From UHGV virus genome UHGV-2080389: a DNA stretch of 12,452 nucleotides; one strand, written 5' to 3'. The notes under the pieces were generated by a model. That model saw only the letters and a program-made list of their open reading frames with translations. It had not been told where the DNA came from and made no database searches. Positions 1-12,452 of this stretch are shown piece after piece (positions within the stretch are counted from its first letter, which is position 1; every line of letters starts with the position of its first letter). The position numbers and the translations under genes were made by a program. The DNA comes from a virus.

Positions 1-392
1 CCCCTCTACCCGATACGCATCTACGTCGGGAAACAACCTGGTATTATCCACTGGAAGCTATTCGCGAAACTGTTGTAAATGCACTGGCTCATCGTGACTG
101 GACACGCTTTGTTGAGATAGAGATTGGCTTGTATAGCAATCGATTTGAAGTTATTAGCCCAGGGGCGCTGAATAATTCGATGTCGATTGAAAAGATGGTT
201 ACAGGTCAGCGATCACCACGCAATACGATTATTATGGAAGTCTTACGTGATTATGGTTACGTTGATTTCAGGGGGATGGGAGTCAGGACAAAGATTATTC
301 CACTAACACAGGCCATGAGTGGCCAACTCCCTGAGTTTACTGCAACAGATGATTACTTGAAAACAATACTTTATCGCTCACCATCTTCTTGA
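1..392 (+). CDS. Putative transcriptional regulator, C-terminal part only (5' end lies outside the window)
   Basis: Frame 3 is open from the window edge to the stop at 390-392. Translation PLPDTHLRRETTWYYPLEAIRETVVNALAHRDWTRF... carries the ALAHRDW-type motif I associate with the HATPase_c_4 C-terminal domain of AlbA_2-type regulators. The tracked ORF 129..392 is only its internal-Met tail. Confidence 0.55.
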   Translation, partial: PLPDTHLRRETTWYYPLEAIRETVVNALAHRDWTRFVEIEIGLYSNRFEVISPGALNNSMSIEKMVTGQRSPRNTIIMEVLRDYGYVDFRGMGVRTKIIPLTQAMSGQLPEFTATDDYLKTILYRSPSS

Positions 393-404
393 TATATAAG
401 GTCT

Positions 405-429
405 GGCCTTTCCATCCATAAGAAAGGCC
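405..429. terminator. Stem-loop between convergent genes (8-bp stem GGCCTTTC/GAAAGGCC, 9-nt loop); possible terminator
   Basis: Inverted repeat read directly from the sequence, lying between the stop at 392 (+) and the stop at 448 (-). Neither strand has a clean U-run after it. Confidence 0.3.
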
Positions 430-447
430 ATTGCTGTAAAAAATAAA

Positions 448-1068
448 TTACCCGCGACTGCAGCCGAAGCTACGGTCGCCATCTCCATATGCTTTTGTAT
501 CGAGTTTAGCTAGGTAGTCGAGACGATTCAGTAATTTATTGTATTCTCCTTCAAAGTTAAAATCATTGACGTCTAAAATATAACGACAATTTTCAGGGTA
601 GTGAACCAATCCCGGATAATCATCCAGTTCCAATCCCAGTGCGCTATACCATGCTCTTACAATCATCATCCTTAAATTTCTTTCAGCCTCATAATCACCT
701 AAATGGTAATAAGCATCTTTATTAAAAAAAAGACCAAGGTGAAAGTGACATTTTCCTTCTTCGGAAAACTCCCGTGCCCAAACATGACGAACACGGTTTG
801 GATATATTCTTTTGCCGTTAGCTGCTCTGGTTCTCTCATTGGCCTCCAACATGGCATTTAATGCATTACGGAAACGGGATATGGCACCAGGCTCTAGATT
901 AGGAAAACAGCAAACAGTGTCACCTCTGTCTAAAATGGGTGGATAATGAACATCAACACGTAACGCCATTGTTCTGGGGAATTCACTGATAGCATCATTG
1001 ACGACTCGTTCAATATGTTTTTTATAGGCGAGCACATGCTCACCATGGGAACCATGATATAATTCCAT
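448..1068 (-). CDS. YagK/YfjJ-family protein (inovirus Gp2-like domain), typical cargo of CP4-type islands
   Basis: 206-aa ORF with ATG at 1066-1068 and AGGA about 8 nt upstream. The protein resembles the YagK/YfjJ family of the E. coli K-12 CP4-6 and CP4-57 elements (recalled, not searched). Confidence 0.7.
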   Translation of the reverse strand: MELYHGSHGEHVLAYKKHIERVVNDAISEFPRTMALRVDVHYPPILDRGDTVCCFPNLEPGAISRFRNALNAMLEANERTRAANGKRIYPNRVRHVWAREFSEEGKCHFHLGLFFNKDAYYHLGDYEAERNLRMMIVRAWYSALGLELDDYPGLVHYPENCRYILDVNDFNFEGEYNKLLNRLDYLAKLDTKAYGDGDRSFGCSRG

Positions 1069-1270
1069 GTTTCGATCCTGTCGTTAGCCCTACGGCTTTG
1101 GATAGCCGTATATAGTAATATGATCAGACATAGCTGAATGTCTGTGGTTAGTTATATTAATTAACTATTAATAGTAATGACTGTTATATAATACCTTTCC
1201 AACAATAAAACTTGTTATCAACCCATTACCCATGCAGTAAAATACTTAAAAAGCAACTCTGCAATTATAA

Positions 1271-1447
1271 TCACCCAAAGATGCCATTATCCCAGTGTCT
1301 TTTTACCGTGGAAATACTTATTCCTAAGATCTTTGCCACCTTGGATTGAGAGTAATGCTTAGCCTTCTCACTCTGAATTAAATGGGAATATTTACTTCCT
1401 TCAGGCCTTCCTAGAATTTTCTTTGATTTTGCTTTGTTAGTAGGCAT
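1271..1447 (-). CDS. Small helix-turn-helix protein (58 aa); below the ORF-track size cut-off
   Basis: Hand-translated: ATG at 1445-1447 preceded by GAGGG about 6 nt upstream, TGA at 1271-1273. Product MPTNKAKSKKILGRPEGSKYSHLIQSEKAKHYSQSKVAKILGISISTVKRHWDNGIFG contains an HTH-like segment (SQSKVAKILGISISTVKRHW). Same orientation as flanking genes. Confidence 0.4.
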   Translation of the reverse strand: MPTNKAKSKKILGRPEGSKYSHLIQSEKAKHYSQSKVAKILGISISTVKRHWDNGIFG

Positions 1448-1529
1448 CTTTTACCCTCATCAAGCTATTAGGTACTAACTCCATACTGTCGAGATGTATG
1501 CAACTAAGTGGTTATGCTTAACATTGGTA

Positions 1530-2294
1530 TCAGAAAGTATGGCTTACTTCACCGTTAAAGGGGTTAATAATGATGGCATCTCCTCCTTTCATCGCCTTTT
1601 GAGGTGTATCGCCTTCGGCAATCACAGGGACCATTACCGCTAGATCATTTGTGTAATAAATTGGTATCCAGCAATAGCATGATTGTTTAGGGGGAGTTTT
1701 ATTTCTTTTCAATACTGCTTCAACTCCAAATGTAATAAGTTCAAAGATTGGCATAATCACAATGCTGCTCAAATCAAAAAAACAACCATCGTAGACTGTT
1801 TCCTTTATCAGTATGATATTAGATAACCCTCCTGCAATGAGATGTTTGTGGTTCACGCGCCGATCTGTGTAAATAAAAATTGCTTTTTTTACATTGAAAC
1901 TTTTTATAATGTATGAGAGCTTTTCATGAATTAATTTTTTTTCGCTCTTACCCATCTTATCATGAGGTATTTTGTGCGCATAAAAATCTTGATCGACAAC
2001 CTCGTTCCGGTGTCGAATGTGAGTGTTCCAGACGGAATGAAAAAACTCTTCGTAAGTTAATTTTGGCTCCCCCCGTGCTATTGACGGGACCTTCTCTTCA
2101 AAAATACAGCCTAATGTTGACTCCAAAGTTTGAGCTATATGATATTGCGATGTTATTTTATTCAATGCTGGGACTGTGGCGTTTAATAAAAATGATATCA
2201 CCTCTGACCTGGAGTATCCTTTTGCATTGCTATAGTCGTCAATTGCATCAATAGTAGAACTATTGTTTACGCTGAAAGTGATGCGTTTTTTCAT
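1530..2294 (-). CDS. Hypothetical protein with an N-terminal ribbon-helix-helix-like segment and a ~200-aa C-terminal region of unknown function; AT-rich
   Basis: 254-aa ORF with ATG at 2292-2294. N-terminus RITFSVNNSSTIDAIDDYSNAKGYSRSEVISFLLN has the beta-strand/helix pattern of RHH (CopG/Arc-type) domains. I recognise no family for the rest. Base composition is visibly more AT-rich than the surrounding genes. Confidence 0.6.
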   Translation of the reverse strand: MKKRITFSVNNSSTIDAIDDYSNAKGYSRSEVISFLLNATVPALNKITSQYHIAQTLESTLGCIFEEKVPSIARGEPKLTYEEFFHSVWNTHIRHRNEVVDQDFYAHKIPHDKMGKSEKKLIHEKLSYIIKSFNVKKAIFIYTDRRVNHKHLIAGGLSNIILIKETVYDGCFFDLSSIVIMPIFELITFGVEAVLKRNKTPPKQSCYCWIPIYYTNDLAVMVPVIAEGDTPQKAMKGGDAIIINPFNGEVSHTF

Positions 2295-2379
2295 ATGTGA
2301 CCTTGAATTTTGTTAATGTGAGATGTGATAAATAGTATTAATCTCCCCCCATTGTTAATGGAAGGTTTGTATTAACTAA

Positions 2380-2405
2380 CCCGGCTATTCTTTAGAATAG
2401 CCGGG
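2380..2405. repeat. Perfect 11-bp inverted repeat (CCCGGCTATTC-TTTA-GAATAGCCGGG)
   Basis: Read directly from the sequence. It sits 12 nt downstream (minus strand) of the AlpA-like stop and upstream of the 254-aa gene start; an adjacent GGAGGCCTC is also palindromic. Confidence 0.5.
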
Positions 2406-2416
2406 GGAGGCCTCTA

Positions 2417-2638
2417 TTAGTTACTATATACTGAGAAGGTTAATAGGTATCTATCAATGTCTTTACGTGACCAATAGTGTCGGTTTTTAATTTTCTTCGG
2501 TCGCGGTAAACCATTAGGCAGTTTGTCTTTGCAAAGCCAAGCTCGAATAGTTTGTACTTCATAGCCAATAATATTAGCTAACTCGCGGGTAGAAATTAGT
2601 TGTGACTGAGAGGGTTTTTGATGTTTGATATCGCTCAT
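2417..2638 (-). CDS. AlpA-family phage/island transcriptional regulator (excisionase-like HTH)
   Basis: 73-aa ORF with ATG at 2636-2638 and a GGGGTG RBS. The motif STRELANIIGYEVQTIRAWLCKDKLPNGLPRPKKIKNRHYWSRKDIDRYL matches the AlpA/Xis-like pattern (HTH followed by a basic wing and conserved W). Lies next to a P4-type integrase. Confidence 0.7.
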   Translation of the reverse strand: MSDIKHQKPSQSQLISTRELANIIGYEVQTIRAWLCKDKLPNGLPRPKKIKNRHYWSRKDIDRYLLTFSVYSN

Positions 2639-3138
2639 TTCATCACCCCAACATTTGATATGTGGGCAAATAAGACGATCATTGTTTTTAACAGAGATGA
2701 AAGAATGAAATGAAAAGGGGTGAATATGGGGTCTCTATCGGGATCGGGGTCGCTACTACTACCATCCGATGAAGATGATGATGAGTTTTTTGATGACGTT
2801 GTTGAACTTCGGCGTGAGCGGGAAGTATTCCCCTTTGGTGGAAAAAGGCATGTTATAGTATTGACTACATTCCTAATAGCAACTAAAAGTTTTGAAACAC
2901 GGTGCCAAAGAGGTAGTATTCGGTCAGTACTACTATTATTAAAACGCTGAATTGTTGTTTCCCAAAAATTAGAACTTTTGTTTTTAGTCGGATGTAAACC
3001 CCATCTCGCTCTGATTTCCGCACTTCGGTCTTCTCTTGATACAGTTATTGGGTTAGTCACTGTAGTTAATCTCCTGCTTAGTGAGTGAATGTAGTTAGCA
3101 GTAATAAAAGATAACTGAAAAAAAATTTCTGTCAACAC
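2635..3138 (-). CDS. Questionable ORF: Ser-rich, low-complexity product; starts with GTG in an AT-rich stretch
   Basis: Open frame whose TGA overlaps the AlpA-like ATG (ATGA). It contains no internal ATG until the last few codons and its product is low complexity (SSTTSSKNSSSSSSDGSSSDPDPD). It overlaps the plus-strand ORF 2726-2950; at most one of the two is real. Confidence 0.2.
   Translation of the reverse strand: MLTEIFFQLSFITANYIHSLSRRLTTVTNPITVSREDRSAEIRARWGLHPTKNKSSNFWETTIQRFNNSSTDRILPLWHRVSKLLVAIRNVVNTITCLFPPKGNTSRSRRSSTTSSKNSSSSSSDGSSSDPDPDRDPIFTPFHFILSSLLKTMIVLFAHISNVGVMK
2726..2950 (+). CDS. Questionable small ORF (74 aa) with an acidic stretch, divergent from the AlpA-like gene
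   Basis: ATG at 2726 preceded by AAGGGG at 2715-2720 (5-nt spacer). Product has GS-rich and acidic segments (SDEDDDEFFDDVVEL) and uses several codons rare in E. coli. The divergent arrangement mirrors yfjH/alpA in CP4-57, which is only weak support. Confidence 0.25.
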   Translation: MGSLSGSGSLLLPSDEDDDEFFDDVVELRREREVFPFGGKRHVIVLTTFLIATKSFETRCQRGSIRSVLLLLKR

Positions 3139-3174
3139 ATGTGATTTTATGTAAGTTGTTGATATTTGATAAAA

Positions 3175-4494
3175 TCAACGCTTATCAACGTTGTTTTTTA
3201 TTTTTGCTTCTTCTAAGATCCATAATTCAACTTTTTCATGCCATTTTCTTAGCAAATCTAATGGACGGCGGCGATAGTGCTTTTCAGCAAGAGCGCTAGG
3301 CTTATGGCCCATAATCTGCGCAACAATACCTGTTGGTACTTCGACCCATTCAGCGAGGGTCCCAAAACTACGGCGCAATCCGTGCAAGCTGATATGTGGT
3401 AACTCCGCGCGAGTTAATGCTCTATTATGTGCTGAACGCGGTTCAATAATTTTGCCACTTTTGCTGTTACTTCTGAAAACCCAATTCTCCTCGTTTGTAC
3501 CACGATTGGGGATCTCCATCAGTGAGCGTAACAAGTCAGAAACATAGGGAGTGAGGGGGATAATTCGCTCGCCTTCGATCTTGTCTTTAATTCTCATGCT
3601 TGACCATTTGAAATCTATGTCAGACCAGCGAAGTGAGGAAATTTCTTCACGCCGTGCACCGGTGAGCAAAAGCACTTGGAGATAGGCTGATGCAATGGGA
3701 TTATTGAGGCTACGCACGGCACTGAACCAGCTTTTGAGCTGTTCTTTTTGTAAGCAATCTCCCGCTTTGCTCGCTGATATTGGAACCATTTTTCTCACGT
3801 TATGATCTTGTGCAAGATCGCCATCGATTATTCCCTGATATTTTTTCTGGTAATTAGCCCATTTGATGAATGCACGCAACAGACGGTAGGCATGAGCAGT
3901 GACGGTAGGCCGATTTTGTCTCTCTGTACTTAGCCATTCGGCAATGTTCTCTGGTGTTAGTTCTGATAATGGTCGGTCGAGCAGGCTAGCCAGTGGCCCA
4001 GGTGAGGTTGGGCCCCGGCCTCTTTTTTTACTTTCGCCTCCACGACTGGACAAGTTAACGTGATCGGCAATGTAGCGTGCAGAGTAGGGGCGTTTAGTTT
4101 TTGCGCTGATTCCGGTTCTCAATTCATCAAGATAATCTTCCCAAGCGCTTGAAAAGGTTGCCTTCGTTTTACGAGATTCAGCCTGCTGTGATTCCGCTTC
4201 AGCAATTTTTTCCGCCTTAGCTATACGCGGATCTATCCCAGTATCGATTAATGTTTGCAGTCGCCTGGCTTCGGCCCTCGCATCATCAATCCTCCAATCG
4301 TTAATGTTGCCAATGGTCATGCGAAGGGTTTTTCCCGCATACAGGCTTTGGAATACAAAGGCTTTTGCTCCACGAGTTGCTCGACATGCCAAGCTTGTTA
4401 CGTCCGTATCCCAAAGGAAAACTTGGTTTTTCCCTTCAGGTAAAGTAAATCTTCGAATTCGTTCGAAGGTTAGTTTTTGTCTTGAAAGCGCCAT
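3175..4494 (-). CDS. int: P4-family (CP4-type) tyrosine integrase
   Basis: 439-aa ORF with ATG at 4492-4494. N-terminal arm-binding-like region (GKTLRMTIGNINDWRIDDARAEARRLQTLIDTGIDP) and C-terminal catalytic signatures (HGLRRSFGT ... EKHYRR, with the Tyr nucleophile context). The start is adjacent to the tRNA-derived att core. Confidence 0.9.
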   Translation of the reverse strand: MALSRQKLTFERIRRFTLPEGKNQVFLWDTDVTSLACRATRGAKAFVFQSLYAGKTLRMTIGNINDWRIDDARAEARRLQTLIDTGIDPRIAKAEKIAEAESQQAESRKTKATFSSAWEDYLDELRTGISAKTKRPYSARYIADHVNLSSRGGESKKRGRGPTSPGPLASLLDRPLSELTPENIAEWLSTERQNRPTVTAHAYRLLRAFIKWANYQKKYQGIIDGDLAQDHNVRKMVPISASKAGDCLQKEQLKSWFSAVRSLNNPIASAYLQVLLLTGARREEISSLRWSDIDFKWSSMRIKDKIEGERIIPLTPYVSDLLRSLMEIPNRGTNEENWVFRSNSKSGKIIEPRSAHNRALTRAELPHISLHGLRRSFGTLAEWVEVPTGIVAQIMGHKPSALAEKHYRRRPLDLLRKWHEKVELWILEEAKIKNNVDKR

Positions 4495-4566
4495 TTTTAG
4501 GGTTCCTGTTGGGGATTACGGTTTACAGTAATGTAACGGCTGGTGTAAGTAAATTGAAAGGATAAA

Positions 4567-4592
4567 CATCAACACTCATCAATTTACATCAA
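4567..4592. repeat. Three CATCAA direct repeats at exact 10-bp spacing (4567, 4577, 4587), the outer two extended to ACATCAACA
   Basis: Read directly from the sequence, between the integrase start (4494) and the att core (4678), followed by an AT-rich tract. Confidence 0.5.
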
Positions 4593-4677
4593 CAGGTTTT
4601 TTGTTTTAATATTATGATTTAAAATGATAAATTTGTGATTTCTGATGGTTGTTCAAGCAGTTAAAATATAAAAACTT

Positions 4678-4726
4678 CGCATTCGTAATGCGAAGGTCGT
4701 AGGTTCGACTCCTATTATCGGCACCA
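4678..4726 (+). other. 3' segment of tRNA-Thr(CGU) (anticodon arm through CCA) without the 5' half: att core / displaced partial tRNA copy
   Basis: CGCATTCGTAATGCGAAGGTCGTAGGTTCGACTCCTATTATCGGCACCA contains an anticodon loop with CGT, a T-arm GGTTCGACTCC, an acceptor 3' strand TATCGGC and CCA. No matching 5' acceptor strand (GCCGATA) or D-arm lies upstream. It resembles the thrW 3' end, the attachment site used by P22-type integrases and by CP4-6 (recalled). Confidence 0.75.
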
Positions 4727-4740
4727 TTTAAATCAATAAG

Positions 4741-5064
4741 TTACCTAGCATTTAAGTAAACCACGTTCTCCTCTTGTGCCGTATTTGTGCCATTGCGACT
4801 TATAATCGCATCGATTTTGCTTGCGTGCTCGGTGAGATGCCCGGCTGAAAGGTGGGCGTATCTTTGAACCATTTCGAGAGTTTCCCATCCTCCCATCTCT
4901 TTAAGTGCAAGAAGAGAGACACCGGACTGAACCAGCCAGCTTGCCCAGGTATGCCTCAGATCATGGAAGCGGAAGTTGCTAATGCCTGCCCGCTTTAACG
5001 CTCCCTTCAGAAATCCATCCATCTCAATTAGTGACATTTGTTTCATTTCTTCCCACTCCGCCAC
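4741..5064 (-). pseudogene. int: C-terminal remnant of a P22-type tyrosine integrase
   Basis: Product [42 protein letters not shown] matches the conserved C-terminal catalytic region of P22-like Int. The tracked 'M' start is a GTG. The frame is closed by a stop roughly 16 codons upstream, and there is no room for the ~280 missing N-terminal codons before the next genes. Confidence 0.7.
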
Positions 5065-5225
5065 ATCGCATTCAGATATTTGTTTTGATTTACTGATGGA
5101 AAAGAATTTCTCTTAAGCAATTCCTCTCTCGATGGCATTGGCTTTACGCGTTGGCGAATAATCATTTCTGCCGGAAGAATGCCGGGATTGTATGCAAGTC
5201 CTCTCATGGTAAATTCCTCAGTCAT
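5043..5225 (-). CDS. Small hypothetical protein (about 60 aa), translationally coupled to the upstream gene
   Basis: ATG at 5223-5225 lies inside the upstream gene's last codons (AATGACTGA overlap). Product [42 protein letters not shown]... The tracked ORF 5043..5357 extends it with a less protein-like N-terminal stretch that is probably not translated. Confidence 0.35.
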
Positions 5226-5511
5226 TACTGATAGCGCCATAGCGTGAGCGGTAATTACGCAGGCGCGGGTCAATTTCAGGGAAGTGGGTATATGTGGCTT
5301 TGCGGAATGGTCGGATTGATGTCTGGTAAATTCGCTCGCGTTCTTCTTTCTCTGCAAGCCATATACAATGGCGAAATTCCTTTTCCTCTTTCGTTTCCTG
5401 CGGTAGAGACATTATTCGATCGTAGTTTTTTCTGAATTTATCCAGCACCTCCGATACGGAATTGCCGGAACAGCGGCGCGCGTCGTCCGCACCATACAGA
5501 GGCGCTGGCAT
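5218..5511 (-). CDS. Hypothetical early-operon protein (97 aa)
   Basis: ATG at 5509-5511 preceded by AAGGA (7-8 nt spacer), 23 nt downstream of the ssb-like stop. I recognise no family. Confidence 0.5.
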
Positions 5512-5534
5512 AATGGAATCCTTATGTTGCTACT

Positions 5535-5918
5535 TTAGAAGGGAATTGAATCGTCGTATTCAGGATGATTTTGATGATTGCTACTTTGCTGCTGTTGGCT
5601 GTTTCCTGAGGTTGCAAATCCAATCTTTGCATTCAGTAATTCAAGAGTGATTGATTGACCATTTTGCCCCTGATAAACATCAACCCTGATGTTTTCTCCG
5701 GTAATTTCTACAATGCCACCTTCAACAAGAACACTACGGTAGTAATCCGCTTGCGCTCCCGGCTTGGCAAATACAACGGCGCTGTAGTTTGTCCATTCTT
5801 TCTTTTTTGTCTGGCGATCGTAATACTGAACGCCAGCACGGATGTTGAATCCGATATTTTCCCCGGCCTGAAACTCTCTTGCGGGCTTGTTTAGTCTTAC
5901 AGTAATCGAATGTGCCAT
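5535..5918 (-). CDS. ssb: Phage single-stranded DNA-binding (SSB-like) protein
   Basis: 127 aa from the ATG at 5916-5918 (AAGGAG upstream). OB-fold-like core with a Gln/Ser-rich linker and an acidic tail ending DDSIPF, like the SSB C-terminal DDDIPF tip. The tracked 157-aa ORF over-extends the N-terminus into the erf 3' end. Confidence 0.75.
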   Translation of the reverse strand: MAHSITVRLNKPAREFQAGENIGFNIRAGVQYYDRQTKKKEWTNYSAVVFAKPGAQADYYRSVLVEGGIVEITGENIRVDVYQGQNGQSITLELLNAKIGFATSGNSQQQQSSNHQNHPEYDDSIPF

Positions 5919-6533: not shown

Positions 6534-7022
6534 TCAGAATGGACACGGCCCAAGTAAATAACGCTGATTTAATACTTCAGTCTTTGCCGCATTTAAAAAT
6601 ACGCGAACACCTTCACGATCTCCCTTCTGGCGATACATTAACGCCTGCTGCGTGTACATGCGTCTCCGGTAGCCTGCCGCGTAAATGGCTACGTTTGGAA
6701 GACATACACCAGTTTCTGGTTGCTTATGTCCAAACTCATTCGCGTACACAATGGCCGCTCGCTCCAGATTGCGTCTGTATTCTTTCTGTTGCCAGATCAC
6801 GTCCTGTGCCATGAACTTAATTGGCTTAGCGTCTTCTATGCGCTCAGGCGTTTCGTGAGTACCTTTAGCCTGAATCTGCGCTCTGCTTAGAGTAGGGCGG
6901 TGTAATACTTCTGAACTTATTGCTTCTTCGCGGGCCAGCACGCCGTTAGCTAATGCCTTTGCCTTTAAACGCTCACGACGACGAGAACGTGAATTGCCTT
7001 TGAACTGAGTTCTGCGTGTCAT
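6534..7022 (-). CDS. N-like transcription antitermination protein with a P22-type arginine-rich motif
   Basis: ATG at 7020-7022 with AGGAGG 6 nt upstream. N-terminal GNSRSRRRERLKAKALA aligns with the P22 N arginine-rich motif (GNAKTRRHERRRKLAIER) and lambda N (QTRRRERRAEKQAQW). It is the first gene downstream of PL/nutL. At 162 aa it is longer than lambda N. Confidence 0.55.
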   Translation of the reverse strand: MTRRTQFKGNSRSRRRERLKAKALANGVLAREEAISSEVLHRPTLSRAQIQAKGTHETPERIEDAKPIKFMAQDVIWQQKEYRRNLERAAIVYANEFGHKQPETGVCLPNVAIYAAGYRRRMYTQQALMYRQKGDREGVRVFLNAAKTEVLNQRYLLGPCPF

Positions 7023-7202: not shown

Positions 7203-7270
7203 CGTAGATTCATATTTGAATCGTTGTATATTCACCGCCCTGGTGAGTAGTGCGTCCTGCTGATGTGTTT

Positions 7271-7333
7271 AGTATCACCGCCAGTGGTATTTATGTCAAC
7301 ACCGCTAGAGATAATTTATCACCGCAGATGGTT
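7271..7333 (-). promoter_or_regulatory. Lambda-type OL1-OL2-OL3 operators with PL (-10 GATACT = plus 7271-7276; -35 TTGACA = plus 7294-7299; 17-bp spacer)
   Basis: OL1 at 7273-7289 (TATCACCGCCAGTGGTA), OL2 at 7297-7313 (one mismatch to lambda OL2), OL3 at 7317-7333 (TATCACCGCAGATGGTT). These are the lambda 17-mers from memory. Confidence 0.85.
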
Positions 7334-7418
7334 ATCTGTATGTTTTTTATATGAATTTATTTTTTGCAGGGGTGCATTGTTTGGTAGGTGAGAGATCTGA
7401 ACTGCTATGTTTAGTGAG

Positions 7419-7448
7419 TTGTATCTATTTATTTTCAAATAGATACAA
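7419..7448. repeat. Perfect 12-bp inverted repeat (TTGTATCTATTT-ATTTTC-AAATAGATACAA)
   Basis: Read directly from the sequence, between OL3 and the tIMM-like terminator. Confidence 0.5.
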
Positions 7449-7485
7449 TTGGTTATGTGTTCTTGGGTGAGGGGGATCGTGAGGC

Positions 7486-7511
7486 AAAGAAAACCCGGCT
7501 CTGTGGCCGGG
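7486..7511 (-). terminator. Intrinsic terminator ending the leftward cI/rex-slot transcript (tIMM-like)
   Basis: Minus strand reads CCCGGC-CACAGA-GCCGGG followed by UUUUCUUUG, immediately after the last rex-slot stop at 7520-7522. Confidence 0.6.
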
Positions 7512-7519
7512 AATAACAT

Positions 7520-7898
7520 TTAGGAATCAAGGTCAGGTAGCATGATTTTCTCAATCAACGTCAATGCCCTTTGGTCTCGTTCAGCAAAATATTTAGGAGC
7601 GTACTGAGGCAGCCACACTTCGTTGAAGTATTGTTTGAAATCTGCAATATTCGTTTGGGTATAGACGTACCGGGAATGTCCGGCCATCTGGGTACTCATG
7701 GTTATATGTTGGGAATGTCTTCGGCTCAACCCCCCGGTTGTCACGGAGCCATTGCGAGAAAACCCTACCCTCTGAAATATCAGGGACCATTTTTTCTGGC
7801 AGCGTATATCCGGCCTGTTCAAGTGGCGCAACCAAGTTAAACGTCAGTTCATTAAGCATAGAAAAGTGCGTATGAGGAACTCTGCCTCGGTTTGTCAT
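7520..7898 (-). pseudogene. Disrupted C-terminal portion of the KilA-N-domain gene (two ORF fragments in different frames)
   Basis: ORF 7593..7898 is in the same frame as the KilA-N ORF, separated from it by one TAA (7938-7940) with 13 sense codons between that TAA and the next ATG. ORF 7520..7831 is in the +1 frame. Protein-like sequence runs in the first frame up to about ...FPVRLYPNEY and continues in the second from about ...NIADFKQYFNEVWLPQYAPKYFAERDQ, so the switch is near 7640-7665. Confidence 0.4.
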
Positions 7899-7937
7899 AT
7901 ACCGCTTAAGGTGGATAGGGAGTTCGGCAGGCGCTCT

Positions 7938-8279
7938 TTAACCTGACATCCACTCACGCACCCATCTCGATACTTGCACTGCAAATTTTGGAGATAGCCA
8001 CTGAGCTAAATTAATTGCGATGTCTGGATGAACCCAAGTCCCTTGATTCTCTGCTCTTCCGCCTTTAAATGATTGAATTAACTCCGATATGGGAATCCCC
8101 ATATCGCGTGATAATTCATCAAAAAAATCTTGTGTTGTTTTTAGTCGTGTATAGTCAGCAAGTAGCTTCCCCGCAGACTTGCACATCGCGGTGGCATTGA
8201 TGTATCCGTCTTTGGTGCGAAGATGGATGACTTCTCCATCAACTTCTCTAGCGATTAATGCAAGTTGAAATTGTGTCAT
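7938..8279 (-). CDS. KilA-N (APSES-like) DNA-binding domain protein in the rexAB position
   Basis: 113-aa ORF with ATG at 8277-8279 and AGGA 7 nt upstream, 31 nt downstream of the cI stop. Signature GTWVHPDIAINLAQWLSPKFAVQVSRWV is typical of the KilA-N domain. Confidence 0.7.
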   Translation of the reverse strand: MTQFQLALIAREVDGEVIHLRTKDGYINATAMCKSAGKLLADYTRLKTTQDFFDELSRDMGIPISELIQSFKGGRAENQGTWVHPDIAINLAQWLSPKFAVQVSRWVREWMSG

Positions 8280-8310
8280 AAATCATCCTATTACGTGAAA
8301 AATAAAACAA

Positions 8311-9027
<717 letters not shown>

Positions 9028-9034
9028 TTAAATC

Positions 9035-9100
9035 TATCACCGCAAGGGATAAACTTCTAACACCGTGCGTGTTGACTATTTTACCTCTAGCGGTGATAAT
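9035..9100. promoter_or_regulatory. Lambda OR3-OR2-OR1 with divergent PRM/PR (PR -35 TTGACT 9072-9077, -10 GATAAT 9095-9100)
   Basis: OR3 at 9035-9051 (TATCACCGCAAGGGATA), OR2 at 9058-9074 (TAACACCGTGCGTGTTG), OR1 at 9082-9098 (one mismatch to lambda OR1). The PR spacer is 17 bp. Confidence 0.9.
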
Positions 9101-9124
9101 GGTTGCCTGTACTAAGGAGGTTGT

Positions 9125-9325
9125 ATGGAACAACGCATAACCCTGAAAGATTATGCAATACGCTTTGGGCAAACCAAGACGGCTAAAGATCTCGGCGTAT
9201 ATCAAAGCGCGATTAACAAGGCCATTCATGCAGGCCGAAAGATTTTTTTAACTATAAACGCTGATGGAAGCGTTTATGCGGAAGAAATAAAGCCCTTCCC
9301 AAGTAACAAAAAAACAACTGCATAA
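9125..9325 (+). CDS. cro: Cro repressor (lambda type, 66 aa)
   Basis: [66 protein letters not shown] differs from lambda Cro at two positions from memory. AGGAGG RBS upstream. Confidence 0.95.
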
Positions 9326-9333
9326 GTAACACC

Positions 9334-9378
9334 GCTCTTTTCACAATGGACATTCGTCCTACGTCGCTGACAAAGCGA
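9334..9378 (+). promoter_or_regulatory. nutR: boxA-like CGCTCTTTT (9334-9342) and P22-type boxB hairpin UCGCUGACAAAGCGA (9364-9378)
   Basis: Located between the cro stop and cII. The boxB has the same GACAA loop and 5-bp stem architecture as nutL. A small hairpin (ATGCGT-TTCC-ACGCAT, 9409-9424) follows and may be part of a tR1-like region. Confidence 0.55.
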
Positions 9379-9462
9379 GCCCCAAGATATCTGACCAACT
9401 AAGGCCATATGCGTTTCCACGCATACCTTTCAACTAACTATTCACTATTGGAAAATTAACAA

Positions 9463-9759
9463 ATGACACAAGCAAGTTATAGCAAACCAACACAGCGAGA
9501 AATTGATCGCGCTGAAACTGATTTACTCATCAACCTGTCAACGCTTACCCAGCGCGGTCTGGCAAAGATGATTGGCTGTCATGAATCGAAGATAAGCAGA
9601 ACGGACTGGAGGTTTATTGCTTCGGTCTTGTGTGCTTTCGGAATGGCATCAGACATCAGTCCGATTAGCAGGGCTTTTAAGTATGCATTGGATGGAATCA
9701 CAAAGAAAAAATCCCCGGCCGCCACCGAGGATTTTAAGCAAATTGATATGCAATTCTGA
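9463..9759 (+). CDS. cII: CII-like transcriptional activator
   Basis: 98 aa. The central ...SKISR...W... segment and the C-terminus KKKSPAATEDFKQIDMQF resemble lambda CII (...KKRPAATERSEQIQMEF), but the protein overall is a different allele. Confidence 0.7.
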   Translation: MTQASYSKPTQREIDRAETDLLINLSTLTQRGLAKMIGCHESKISRTDWRFIASVLCAFGMASDISPISRAFKYALDGITKKKSPAATEDFKQIDMQF

Positions 9760-9791
9760 GGTCATTACTGGATCAATCTACAGGAGTAATT

Positions 9792-9953
9792 ATGACAAAA
9801 CGTCGTAAGAAATACCAGGAAAAAGAAGAGATTCGACACCCTGATTCACCTGAGGGATTAGTGGTAGCCGCAGCAAATAACAGGGCGTTCGCAGAGCGCC
9901 TTGTTGGTGTTTACAGACTAGCCAAAGCAGGAGTGAAACATGGGCGTCGTTAA
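9792..9953 (+). CDS. Small hypothetical ORF (53 aa); below the ORF-track cut-off
   Basis: ATG at 9792 with AGGAG 5 nt upstream. Product MTKRRKKYQEKEEIRHPDSPEGLVVAAANNRAFAERLVGVYRLAKAGVKHGRR, stop at 9951-9953. It overlaps the next ORF by 14 nt. Confidence 0.4.
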   Translation: MTKRRKKYQEKEEIRHPDSPEGLVVAAANNRAFAERLVGVYRLAKAGVKHGRR

Positions 9954-10110
9954 GTTAGCTGATTACAGGCCTCAACTGGAGGTCGTGGAGCATCGCGTGG
10001 CAGAACTCGAAGATGGCTACACTCGGACTGCAAACACACTGTTAGAAGCCGCCATGCTTTACCGAATACTGAAGAATTACGCCAAAACCCTGACAGGAGC
10101 AGGAGTATGA
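9940..10110 (+). pseudogene. O-like replication initiator: N-terminal stub only (56 codons)
   Basis: ATG at 9940 with AGGAG upstream. The segment VAELEDGYTRTANTLLEA aligns with the lambda O N-terminus (VADLDDGYARLSNMLLEA, recalled). The frame then ends after about 20 more codons, with no room for the remaining ~250 codons of O or for P. Confidence 0.45.
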
Positions 10111-10195
10111 AGTCAGAGATAACAATCAACTAATACTGTTTTGTTGATTTTTGCTTGTGATTGGCGTTCTGGTCTGATTTTTGTGGAGTAAGTTG

Positions 10196-10581
10196 ATGCG
10201 TGATATTCAGATGGTTCTTGAGCGTTGGGGAGCGTGGGCGGCTAATAATCATGAANNNNNNNNNNNNNNNNNNNNATTGCCGCCGGTTTTAAGGGATTAA
10301 TTCCTTCAAAAGTAAAATCTCGCCCGCAATGTTGTGACGATGACGCGATGATCATTTGCGGGTGCATGGCCCGTCTGAAAAAGAACAACAGCGATTTGCA
10401 CGATTTATTAGTAGATTATTATGTAGTCGGTATGACATTCATGTCACTGGCAGGTAAGCATTGCTGCTCTGATGGTTATATCGGGAAAAGGTTACAGAAG
10501 GCTGAGGGCATAATTGAAGGGATGTTAATGGCATTAGATATCCGGTTAGAGATGGATATCGTTGTTAATAACTCTAATTAA
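10196..10581 (+). CDS. Q: Q-family late antiterminator (phage 82 / QuuD type), interrupted by a 20-N gap
   Basis: ATG at 10196 (GGAG 7 nt upstream) gives [20 protein letters not shown] up to the N-run. After the N-run the frame of ORF 10348..10581 reads [36 protein letters not shown]...VVNNSN. Both halves match my recollection of Q82/QuuD. Confidence 0.75.
10256..10275. other. Run of 20 N: assembly or scaffold gap, not biological sequence
   Basis: Literal n characters. Flanking Q codons are out of frame by one across the run, so its length is a placeholder. Confidence 0.95.
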
Positions 10582-10594
10582 TATGCCAATTGTT

Positions 10595-10633
10595 TACTAA
10601 AAATTATTAAAAATGGGGCGTTGAGACGCCCCC
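10595..10633 (-). terminator. Intrinsic terminator for minus-strand transcription downstream of the porin gene
   Basis: Minus strand reads GGGGCG-UCUCAA-CGCCCC followed by AUUUUUAAUAAUUUUUAG. Confidence 0.5.
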
Positions 10634-10720
10634 AAAAATAAAGGGTAATATATAACAGAAGGTTTATATAGTTAGAAGCAAGGTTGTGCTTCTAAAGGAA
10701 GTGGCTTGAGGGAGCCACTT

Positions 10721-10760
10721 ATATGTTGGGGAGGCAACGCCTCCCGCAACATATCTTTTT
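10721..10760 (+). terminator. Strong plus-strand intrinsic terminator downstream of Q (tR'-like)
   Basis: ATATGTTG-GGGAGGC-AAC-GCCTCCC-G-CAACATAT (about 15-bp stem with one bulge) followed by CTTTTTC. A second hairpin (AAGTGGCT/AGCCACTT) lies at 10699-10720. Confidence 0.6.
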
Positions 10761-10770
10761 CGTAATCAGA

Positions 10771-11868
10771 TTAGAACTGGTAAACCAGACCTACAGCAAC
10801 GATGTCATCAGTGCTTACACCGAGTGCTTTAGTGAAGTCATTTTTGTCAAGCAGGTTGATTTTGTAATCAACGAAAGTAGACATATTTTTGTTGAAGTAA
10901 TAGGTTGCACCTACATCAACATATTTGACTAAGTCCTGATCGCCCCATACTCCAAGATCTTTACCTTTAGATTGCAGGTAAGCAACGGACGGACGCAGAC
11001 CGAAATCGAACTGATATTGTGCAACAGCTTCGAAGTTTTGGGCTTTATTAGCAACGAAGTGATCAGCAAATACAGTCATATTCTGGGTTTCAGAATAGGT
11101 AGTGGCCAGGTAAATGTTGTTAGCGTCATATTTCAGACCTGCGGCCCAAACTTCTGCATTTTTACCGGAAGCAAATACTTCAGGAAGAACTTTCCCTGCA
11201 TTAACTTGAGTGTCGGTACGATCAGATTTCGCATAAGTTGCACCGATACCGAATCCTTCGTATTCATAGGTAGCAGAGAAACCGAAGCCATCACCGTTAC
11301 CTTCAGTGTAGTTATCGAAATCGCTACGATCGTTTTTGCCTTGGTACTGAGCAGCAAAGTTCAGACCATCAACCAGACCAAAGAAGTCGTTGTTACGATA
11401 GGTTGCAACACCAGTGGTGCGACCAGTCATGAACACATCTGTTTGGGTCCAGGTATCGCCACCGAATTCTGGCAGAACGTCAGTCCACGCACCGATGTCG
11501 TATGCTACACCGTAGTTACGGCCGTAATCGATTGAGCCGTAGTCACCGAATTTCAGGCCTGCAAATGCAAGACGGGTTTTGTCTTTGGAGGAACCTTGAG
11601 ATTCAGCGCGGTTGCCTTTGAATTCATATTCCCACTGACCGAAACCAGTCAGTTGATCGTTGATTTGGGTTTCACCTTTGAAGCCAAGACGGGCATAAGT
11701 AGTATCACCATCATCTGCATCATTAGAGGAGAAGTAGTGCTTGGCATTAACTTTCCCGTACAGATCCAGCTTGTTACTGTCTTTATTATAAATTTCAGCT
11801 GCCTGAGCAGACATCGCCATCAGTACTGATGCAGCTACAGCAGAAATTGCCACTGTTAATTTTTTCAT
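10771..11868 (-). CDS. nmpC: Prophage-borne outer-membrane porin (NmpC/Lc family, OmpC-like), with signal peptide
   Basis: 365-aa ORF. N-terminal signal [23 protein letters not shown] followed by AEIYNK, and the classic porin C-terminus ...VGLVYQF. Its position between Q and the lysis genes, on the opposite strand, is that of nmpC in DLP12 and lc in phage PA-2. Confidence 0.9.
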
Positions 11869-12296
11869 CGTGAGCCCTTTTTTTTGAACTATTATTAAAA
11901 AATGATGTCACTGCGCGATAAATATTCATCTAATCAATGTGATTATTTCAAGATGTAAGTTTTGGTTTCTCGTTTGATTTGTGAAGTAGATCTCTATTTT
12001 TATCTGAACTTTTTTCTATCGAATCCTATTCATAGCTCTTGGCTGAATAAAAATAAATCTATTAGTCAATTTATATTAACGGCTGTTATTTATAAGTGCT
12101 CTATAATTTGAAGGTTCAATTTAAATCGGCTAAAAATAACACTGGAAATTATTTGTTGGTTATTTGTTGAGGTTTTCTTATGTATTTGTGGTGGTGTTTT
12201 GAACACTCGGTAGCATTCTCATAAATATCATTCAGTGGTTTACGTACGTAAAAAATTGGTTATGCTGTTAAGAGTGGTTACTTCGTCACACAGCTT

Positions 12297-12329
12297 AAAC
12301 CCGCCGTCGAGCGGGTTTTTCCATTTTTT
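12297..12329 (+). terminator. Plus-strand intrinsic terminator just upstream of the holin-like start
   Basis: AAACCCGC-CGTCGA-GCGGGTTT followed by TTCCATTTTTT. Confidence 0.45.
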
Positions 12330-12441
12330 GAGTCTCGATATTAGCTGATAACCCAATACCTGAGTTATTCACTGACTCCGAGTCTGTTACGTTTCGTAGT
12401 ATTCCCTCAATTTACACCCGCTTTGTCTGCGAGGTGGGGTT

Positions 12442-12452
12442 ATGAAATCCAT
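12442..12452 (+). CDS. First codons of a lysis gene, probably a class II (S21-type) holin; continues beyond the window
   Basis: GAGGTGG RBS at 12431-12437 then ATGAAATCCAT (M K S ...). S21-type holins begin MKSMDK and follow the porin in DLP12-like prophages. Only 11 nt are visible. Confidence 0.35.

Follow-up and report, generated by a model that had tools for sequence, protein, structure and literature searches.

The 436 bp that separate cII from the antiterminator gene Q in the viral genome UHGV-2080389 are very probably what remains after one illegitimate (microhomology-mediated) deletion within a single lambdoid prophage integrated at thrW. We analysed a stretch of 12,452 nt of this genome (hereafter the window), in which the interval 9760–10195 runs from the cII stop (9759) to the Q ATG (10196), and Q, a gene of the QuuD type, is the next large gene 3′ of cII. 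A first-pass annotation had described a gap of about 430 bp holding two short overlapping open reading frames (ORFs) with strong ribosome-binding sites, and this description needs little adjustment: Q starts at 10196 and not at 10197, both ORFs have an AGGAG motif, and they overlap by 14 nt (Table 1). Given that the window contains 80 ORFs of at least 40 aa, such sizes are frequent by chance, and the evidence on what the two ORFs are is therefore their homology and not their length. The same annotation held that the replication genes expected between cII and Q have been deleted, which is borne out: at this place, intact relatives have O, a DnaB-type helicase or λ P, and nin genes, and comparison with them defines the junction to the base, at a TT dinucleotide.

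Table 1. Features of the early-right and late-regulatory region of the remnant (positions in the window)
Feature	Position	Strand	Description
λ-type cI	8311–9024	−	From the ORF list
PR-like promoter	9072–9100	+	TTGACT-17-GATAAT, 10/12 in a consensus scan; between cI and cro; predicted from its position to drive cro–cII–gp53–fusion–Q
cro	9125–9325	+	From the ORF list
nutR boxB-like hairpin	9364–9378	+	TCGCTGACAAAGCGA; aligns with epsilon34 boxB, identical in HK97; annotated by alignment only
tR1-like hairpin	~9411–9426	+	Aligns with epsilon34 tR1, identical in HK97; annotated by alignment only
cII-family activator gene	9463–9759	+	Intact, 98 aa; PF05269 positions 1–90/91, E = 1.7e-33; phrog_191; 97–98% nucleotide identity to HK97 cII
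oop-type antisense RNA region	9702–9782	−	Ends inferred from the numbering in PMC3349717 (−90 to −10 from the ATG)
oop terminator tO	9708–9735	−	Hairpin and T run
HK97 gp53-family gene (first ORF of the gap)	9792–9953	+	Intact, 53 aa; phrog_1331 positions 1–53/53, E = 1.4e-37; ribosome-binding site AGGAGtaattATG
O-type initiator gene, 5′ stub (codons 1–40)	9940–10060	+	121/121 nt identical to the gene for WP_021563804.1 of E. coli Z1322HEC0003
Deletion junction	10059–10060	.	TT common to both parental sequences, 2-bp microhomology
ylcG 3′ end (codons 31–46 and stop)	10059–10110	+	Identity to WCHEC020031 (E. coli) ylcG 100%; continues the reading frame of the O stub
Fusion ORF O(1–40)::YlcG(31–46) (second ORF of the gap)	9940–10110	+	56 aa; probable by-product of the deletion; ribosome-binding site AGGAGtgaaacATG
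Q antiterminator gene, QuuD type	10196–10581	+	PF06530 on the C-terminal part; mask of 20 N at 10256–10275

A fusion ORF spans the junction

The second ORF of the gap is composed of the beginning of one gene and the end of another. Its predicted product consists of O(1–40), MGVVKLADYRPQLEVVEHRVAELEDGYTRTANTLLEAAML, joined in frame to YlcG(31–46), YRILKNYAKTLTGAGV. Mismatches to O start at 10061 and, reading leftward, mismatches to ylcG start at 10058, which leaves the TT between them as the only sequence common to both sides. From 10059 on, the ylcG 3′ end, the spacer and the start of Q are 100% identical to E. coli WCHEC020031 and to many other genomes. In Z1322HEC0003, the gene that matches the stub encodes a 276-aa O-type 'replication protein' and is followed by a DnaB-type helicase gene. 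In mechanistic terms, a break-and-join at the common TT would have fused O codon 40 to ylcG codon 31, and would have taken with it about 236 O codons, the iterons inside O, the helicase or P gene and the entire nin region.

This ORF had initially been likened to the first 40 or so residues of λ O. That reading holds in so far as residues 1–40 do come from an O protein, with 13/21 identities to λ-type O (E = 3e-7), but they are closer to the lineage of HK97 gp54 and P22 gp18 (27/40 identities to HK97 O, E = 1e-18, the first 21 residues being identical), and residues 41–56 are the YlcG C terminus. Consistent with an O-family origin, the ORF matches four PHROGs described as 'replication initiation O-like', over their first ~45–50 positions only (best E = 2e-12), and the Pfam family Phage_rep_O (PF04492) over positions 1–33 of 95, with an E value of 3.8e-5 and a score of 24.6 bits that lies below the gathering score of 28.7. 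The phage_O_Nterm domain (TIGR01610) occupies residues 22–113 in an intact O-type relative, and of this origin-binding domain of about 92 residues the fusion ORF keeps only 19; measured against PF04492 and TIGR01610, it is a fragment of a family member. On the YlcG side, an NCBIfam scan of the 56-aa fusion gave no match, where the intact 46-aa YlcG scores 74 bits (NF033498); the ORF has no full-length match to the YlcG family (NF033498/PF26818), and its sole Pfam match on this side is a precomputed one labelled 'weak'. On sequence grounds, the 56-aa ORF is neither an O protein nor a YlcG protein, and the fusion peptide is expected to be inert, without a function of its own.

Loss of the replication genes and the origin

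What stood between the two breakpoints can be estimated from two sets of relatives. In prophages with the same O allele (Z1322, 980-2 and 18KM2445), Q is preceded by O (276 aa), a DnaB-type helicase, NinB, NinE, NinF, RusA, NinH and other nin genes; in those with the same right arm, it is preceded by O, P, ren, nin genes, rusA and ylcG. The length of the missing interval, counted from O nt 122 to the equivalent of the join, varies with the relative taken (the prophage of E. coli D5, about 4.0 kb; 18KM2445, about 4.3 kb; 980-2, about 5.4 kb), so that the deleted length of about 4–5.5 kb, like the deleted content, is an estimate bracketed from relatives that carry one side each. The matching O allele contains four iterons of about 23 nt at nt 345–434, that is, beyond the breakpoint, and in ES18 and epsilon34 ori is annotated at the same place in O. 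We found no iteron-like sequence in the window with up to three mismatches allowed, and the other ORFs of the window include no member of the lambdoid replication families and no P or DnaB-type ORF. The first-pass annotation had allowed for a full replication module in an unusual position elsewhere in the prophage; none is present up to the window end at 12452. We infer that the remnant cannot initiate its own replication. Moreover, because the replication genes and ori are gone, and int and xis are gone as well (see below), the element should neither replicate nor excise. A role of the cII–oop–O′ piece in the λ 'inhibition phenotype', in which oop and the ori iterons block incoming phages, was also considered and is ruled out by the deletion of the iterons.

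The gp53 gene is left undamaged

Whether the first ORF of the gap encodes a real protein had been left open. Several lines of evidence indicate that it does. It matches phrog_1331 over its full length, it lies in the expected position between the cII/oop region and O, and it evolves as a protein-coding sequence: in a small sample of eight sequences (including those from Cronobacter and Enterobacter phages, and one with an indel close to the end), the in-frame pN/pS is 0.275, compared with 1.39 and 1.50 in the other frames, and the numbers of variable columns at codon positions 1, 2 and 3 are 21, 14 and 39. The amino-acid sequence is 100% identical to that of HK97 gp53 and to those of many HK, mEp, Stx and Salmonella phages, and 77–79% identical to ORFs of Cronobacter and Enterobacter phages. 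At least 1,000 contigs carry the exact protein, and a gp53-type ORF is present in 97 phage records; those with annotation at this spot place it immediately in front of the O/gp18 gene or overlapping with it. Annotated loci of HK97, ES18, epsilon34, Stx2-1717 and E. coli prophages show the ORF at this position too, again overlapping the O start by 14 nt. As judged from its sequence, the ORF at 9792–9953 is thus a conserved phage gene under purifying selection, which the deletion has left undamaged.

A gene layout of cII–oop–orf–O has been described previously, in which the orf is orf48 in P22 and HK022 and gp53 in HK97, and is absent from λ (PMC3349717). gp53 and λ O have homologous starts: the sequence is identical to that of a λ-type prophage through ...AGGAGT(A/C)ATTATGACAAA and then diverges. 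The stretch 9760–9799 aligns with the λ-type cII–O junction, and the −10 element of pO overlaps the gp53 start. The oop antisense unit is likewise kept; an Rfam scan for the oop family or other RNAs returned only a tRNA-like match, at 4651–4723, and oop is placed here by the terminator scan, this alignment and the published layout. The gp53 family has no assignment in Pfam or NCBIfam, and a literature search gave positional mentions only.

One mosaic parent or two prophages

The two arms of the remnant resemble different phages. The early-right region of the parent would have been HK97-like, with a λ-type cI and cro, cII, oop, gp53 and an O of the HK97 gp54/P22 gp18 lineage, and its late-regulatory region DLP12/λ-like, with nin genes, rusA, ylcG, a quuD-type Q, a porin gene on the opposite strand and essD. 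On the left, identity to HK97 and to many E. coli prophages, all of which have cII, gp53, a full-length O and a DnaB-type helicase, is 95–98% up to the breakpoint. HK97 itself (NC_002167) is collinear with the remnant through cI, cro, cII, the oop region and gp53 (97.3% over window positions 8315–10016), but continues into a full 273-aa O (gp54) with an internal origin, a DnaB-type helicase (P, gp55) and a nin region before Q, whereas the remnant lacks everything past O codon 40; beyond residue 21, the O allele of the remnant is closer to E. coli prophages of the Z1322HEC0003 type than to HK97. The synteny of the early region is that of a lambdoid phage, with cI, then cro and cII rightward from PR, and N leftward, and is 97% identical to HK97; the N peptide family is found at 6534–7022.

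On the right, the ylcG–Q segment occurs in 2,882 complete E. coli genomes with up to 100% identity from the breakpoint on, and in the relatives inspected it lies downstream of an O–P–nin region. DLP12-type prophages, including that of D5, are collinear with the remnant over the ylcG 3′ end, the spacer, the quuD-type Q, the opposite-strand porin gene, a tR′-like terminator and the start of essD (97% over 10059–12452). They differ in having a complete ylcG, which follows rusA, the nin genes, P and O; in the remnant, the first 30 ylcG codons are gone and the rest of the gene is joined to O. The Q flanks are identical to 127-aa quuD-type genes in two sister contigs (L006 and L008); the mask within Q spans 20 nt in the window compared with 18 nt in relatives and sister contigs, and the reading frame through it is unreadable in the window.

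Arms of different affinity could also have been brought together by illegitimate recombination between two lambdoid prophages of the same cell, the first HK97-like and at thrW, the second DLP12-like and at another site, with the intervening chromosomal DNA lost or rearranged. In keeping with this, the left arm (Abc2, Erf and cII–gp53–O) is HK97/P22-like and the right arm (ylcG–quuD–porin–essD) is DLP12/λ-like, the ylcG–Q segment is often multi-copy in E. coli, at up to four places per genome, and no single intact parent has come to light. Searches of complete E. coli genomes and phage records returned no intact prophage or phage with both the O allele and the ylcG–quuD–porin arm: Z1322, 980-2 and 18KM2445, which share the O allele, have a different Q and lysis arm, and prophages with the same ylcG–Q–porin arm have early regions of the λ type or the YdaS/YdaT type instead. 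A look-up of the exact porin for the right arm of the lineage returned only intact, unrelated prophages, the protein being extremely common. Against two parents, however, mosaicism at just these module borders is routine among lambdoid phages, and both the KilA-N/cI/cro block and the ylcG–Q–porin block are about 97% identical to one and the same D5 prophage. The matching segments are 7232–9339 (a BstA-like gene, cI and cro) and 10059–12452, and similarity at this level on both sides fits a single mosaic parent with an HK97-type cII–gp53–O module. On the K-12 map, furthermore, a deletion from thrW to argU, the usual site of DLP12, would presumably remove about 300 kb containing essential genes. 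We therefore consider recombination between two prophages quite unlikely, and prefer a deletion within one prophage.

Decay elsewhere in the element

A deletion within one prophage is in line with the state of the rest of the element. The first-pass annotation had reported a truncated int; this reflects a real internal deletion relative to the intact thrW prophage of E. coli PD7. The deletion measures 1.7 kb, has flanks at 4678–5008 and 5003–5600 that share a 6-bp microhomology (5003–5008), and took the first ~295 codons of int, an xis-like gene and more. The KilA-N/BstA-like gene beside cI differs from the D5 allele by a GAA-to-TAA nonsense mutation (stop at 7938–7940) and by a 2-bp deletion at 7646/7647. 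The int–xis deletion and the broken BstA-like gene point to decay rather than design. Of the holin gene, only the first 13 nt fall inside the window, which places the retention of lysis genes outside its view.

We also considered the short cII–gp53–O′–Q layout as a selected functional design, for example that of a satellite-like or domesticated element that borrows the replication of a helper. The intactness of cI, cro, cII, gp53, N and the porin gene (and of Q in sister contigs), together with the persistence of the allele in slightly diverged backgrounds, would suit such an element. Yet the breakpoints lie inside two genes and not at module borders, the same element carries the two lesions described above, the allele is confined to a handful of contigs, and neither cos nor pac nor any helper-exploitation gene was seen in the window, all of which makes this reading highly improbable.

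Separately, the window carries a CP4-type island between thrW and the remnant, with a P4-like integrase gene (3175–4494) and a gene of the YagK/YfjJ family; the island is absent from one of the sister contigs (L004).

Occurrence of the junction

The junction is a real genomic allele. Its sequence is identical in four human-gut metagenome contigs (L004–L007) from four independent assemblies; two of these contigs are 99.98–100% identical to the window over 4.9–5.6 kb, the other two having SNPs in the flanks. The exact fusion protein is listed on five contigs, and a one-residue variant on one more; the contigs carrying the fusion protein that we examined number eight. In contig L004 the remnant directly adjoins proA–thrW, which identifies it as a thrW prophage. 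An assembly chimera, with contigs of two prophages joined across a short repeat into a molecule that never existed, would suit the fact that lambdoid prophage modules are repeated within genomes and break short-read assemblies, as well as the end of L004 138 nt after the fusion ORF and the masked run of N 196 nt downstream of the junction. Yet no assembler would be deceived by an overlap of 2 bp, and the recurrence of an identical junction in four assemblies, with the protein also recorded from NCBI, JGI/IMG and Logan sources, makes a chimera hardly credible.

The allele is new and rare. None of the 5,426 complete E. coli genomes searched contains the junction, nor does any of 50,697 phage records, and the junction 40-mer TGTTAGAAGCCGCCATGCTTTACCGAATACTGAAGAATTA had no match among the GTDB representative genomes. 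The process behind it, prophage decay by microhomology-mediated internal deletion, is already well known.

Discussion

The remnant has counterparts among both laboratory and natural deletions. The nin deletions of λ (such as nin5) and the laboratory cryptic λ fragments used for replicative-killing selection are likewise internal deletions of the PR operon between the replication genes and Q that shorten the path from PR to Q. In nin5, O, P and ori are intact and the phage is viable; the deletion in the remnant also removes O, ori and the helicase or P gene, and arose in nature rather than under laboratory selection. The cryptic prophages of K-12 (DLP12, Rac, Qin and e14) are fixed lambdoid remnants with a truncated int and internal deletions that have kept some regulatory, porin and lysis genes. 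The present remnant differs from them in lying at thrW with a complete λ-type immunity region, and in a junction that none of the complete E. coli genomes searched contains.

If cI repression were lost, the PR transcript through cro, nutR, tR1, cII, gp53, the fusion ORF and Q would be only about 1.5 kb long. With the nin-region terminators gone, Q might be made earlier and with less dependence on N, as is the case in λ nin deletions. Between PR and the Q stop, plus-strand hairpins followed by T runs are found at 9603–9628 (in cII) and 10537–10560 (at the 3′ end of Q), and none lies in the cII–Q gap. Both are native to retained genes, and the tR1-like hairpin is also kept.

The loss of replication may itself have mattered to the host. 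In integrated copies of λ, origin firing when excision is impossible leads to replicative killing of the cell (PMC3349717), and in non-excisable prophages the loss of O, P or ori lets cells survive induction. Once int and xis had been deleted, the loss of O, P and ori may thus have been favoured, because it would abolish lethal 'escape replication' in situ; that the int–xis deletion came first and the loss of O, P and ori second is our conjecture. Going further, the deletion could be non-neutral in one of two ways. It may have created a compact, SOS-triggered switch from cI/PR to Q without in-situ killing, which the host retains for immunity, porin or lysis functions; or the O(1–40)::YlcG peptide, made from PR together with gp53, might interfere with the O-type initiators of superinfecting phages of the HK97/P22 type. 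The one observation that speaks for a switch or for interference is the intactness of the regulatory genes, and we regard a non-neutral deletion of either kind as very unlikely.

For annotation, the 56-aa ORF should be recorded as an O′–′ylcG fusion pseudogene, not as a replication protein and not as YlcG, and the appropriate label for the element is that of a defective prophage, from which neither replication nor excision nor phage production is expected. Defined to the base, the junction can conveniently mark the lineage of the E. coli clade in which it occurs, and provides a clean natural case of microhomology-mediated prophage decay. More speculatively, if the shortened route from PR to Q really changes when induction or lysis takes place, this allele would be the equivalent in nature of the nin deletions known from the laboratory.

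Internal deletion and hybrid attachment site

The first-pass annotation had described int as truncated, and comparison with E. coli PD7, whose thrW prophage is intact, bears this out: the truncation results from a second deletion inside the prophage, about 1.7 kb long and with 6-bp microhomology at its junction (5003–5008). It removed the first approximately 295 codons of int together with a xis-like gene and left an int remnant at 4678–5064; the listed int ORF continues past 5008 into unrelated sequence. At 4651–4726, Rfam scores a tRNA (36.3 bits), and ARAGORN detects no tRNA in this interval. Identity to thrW, in the form present in the gut-metagenome contig L004, is confined to 4678–4726 and covers the 3′ 49 nt of that tRNA gene; the 5′ part derives from the neighbouring island. 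The interval as a whole is a hybrid att-site pseudo-tRNA.

Flanking island and accessory genes

In the window, thrW is separated from the lambdoid remnant by a CP4-type island placed in tandem. In addition to its integrase it encodes an AlpA-like helix–turn–helix (HTH) gene and a YagK/YfjJ-family gene, and it is 99.9% identical to islands of other E. coli. L004 carries the same remnant as the window, without the island; the island was gained or lost after the remnant became fixed.

Features of the window outside the deletion junctions
Feature	Position	Strand	Remark
CP4-type island	1–4677		in tandem, between thrW and remnant
P4-like integrase	3175–4494		in CP4-type island
KilA-N/BstA-like gene	7520–8279	minus	adjoins cI
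OmpC/NmpC-type porin gene	10771–11868	minus	intact
tR′-like terminator	12297–12318		downstream of porin gene
essD holin gene	start 12440		first 13 nt only

BstA-type proteins are known phage-defence proteins. Compared with the 253-amino-acid allele of E. coli D5, the KilA-N/BstA-like gene of the window contains a GAA-to-TAA stop at 7938–7940 and a 2-bp deletion at 7646/7647 and is a pseudogene. The porin gene is intact; the exact protein is extremely common in lambda-like prophages (listed in 17,985 blocks of the collection). Because essD starts so close to the right end, just 13 nt of the holin gene fall within the window.

Masked run in Q and flank variation of the junction allele

Within the antiterminator gene Q, a masked run at 10256–10275 consists of 20 N, compared with 18 nt (GATGTGACCTGGTCGTCC) in every relative, including L005, a metagenomic contig that is 100% identical to the window across their 4,863-nt overlap. 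Either the mask is not length-preserving or a 2-nt insertion frameshifts Q, and the window alone gives no choice between the two.

Two further contigs, L006 and L007, have the identical O′–′ylcG deletion junction, yet depart from the window sequence at a number of positions in the flanks, with L007 showing 10 single-nucleotide polymorphisms (SNPs) across cII and the spacer; one protein variant (entry P0002) carries A48T. These flank differences indicate either that the junction allele predates a single clone or that its flanks were converted by other resident lambdoid prophages.
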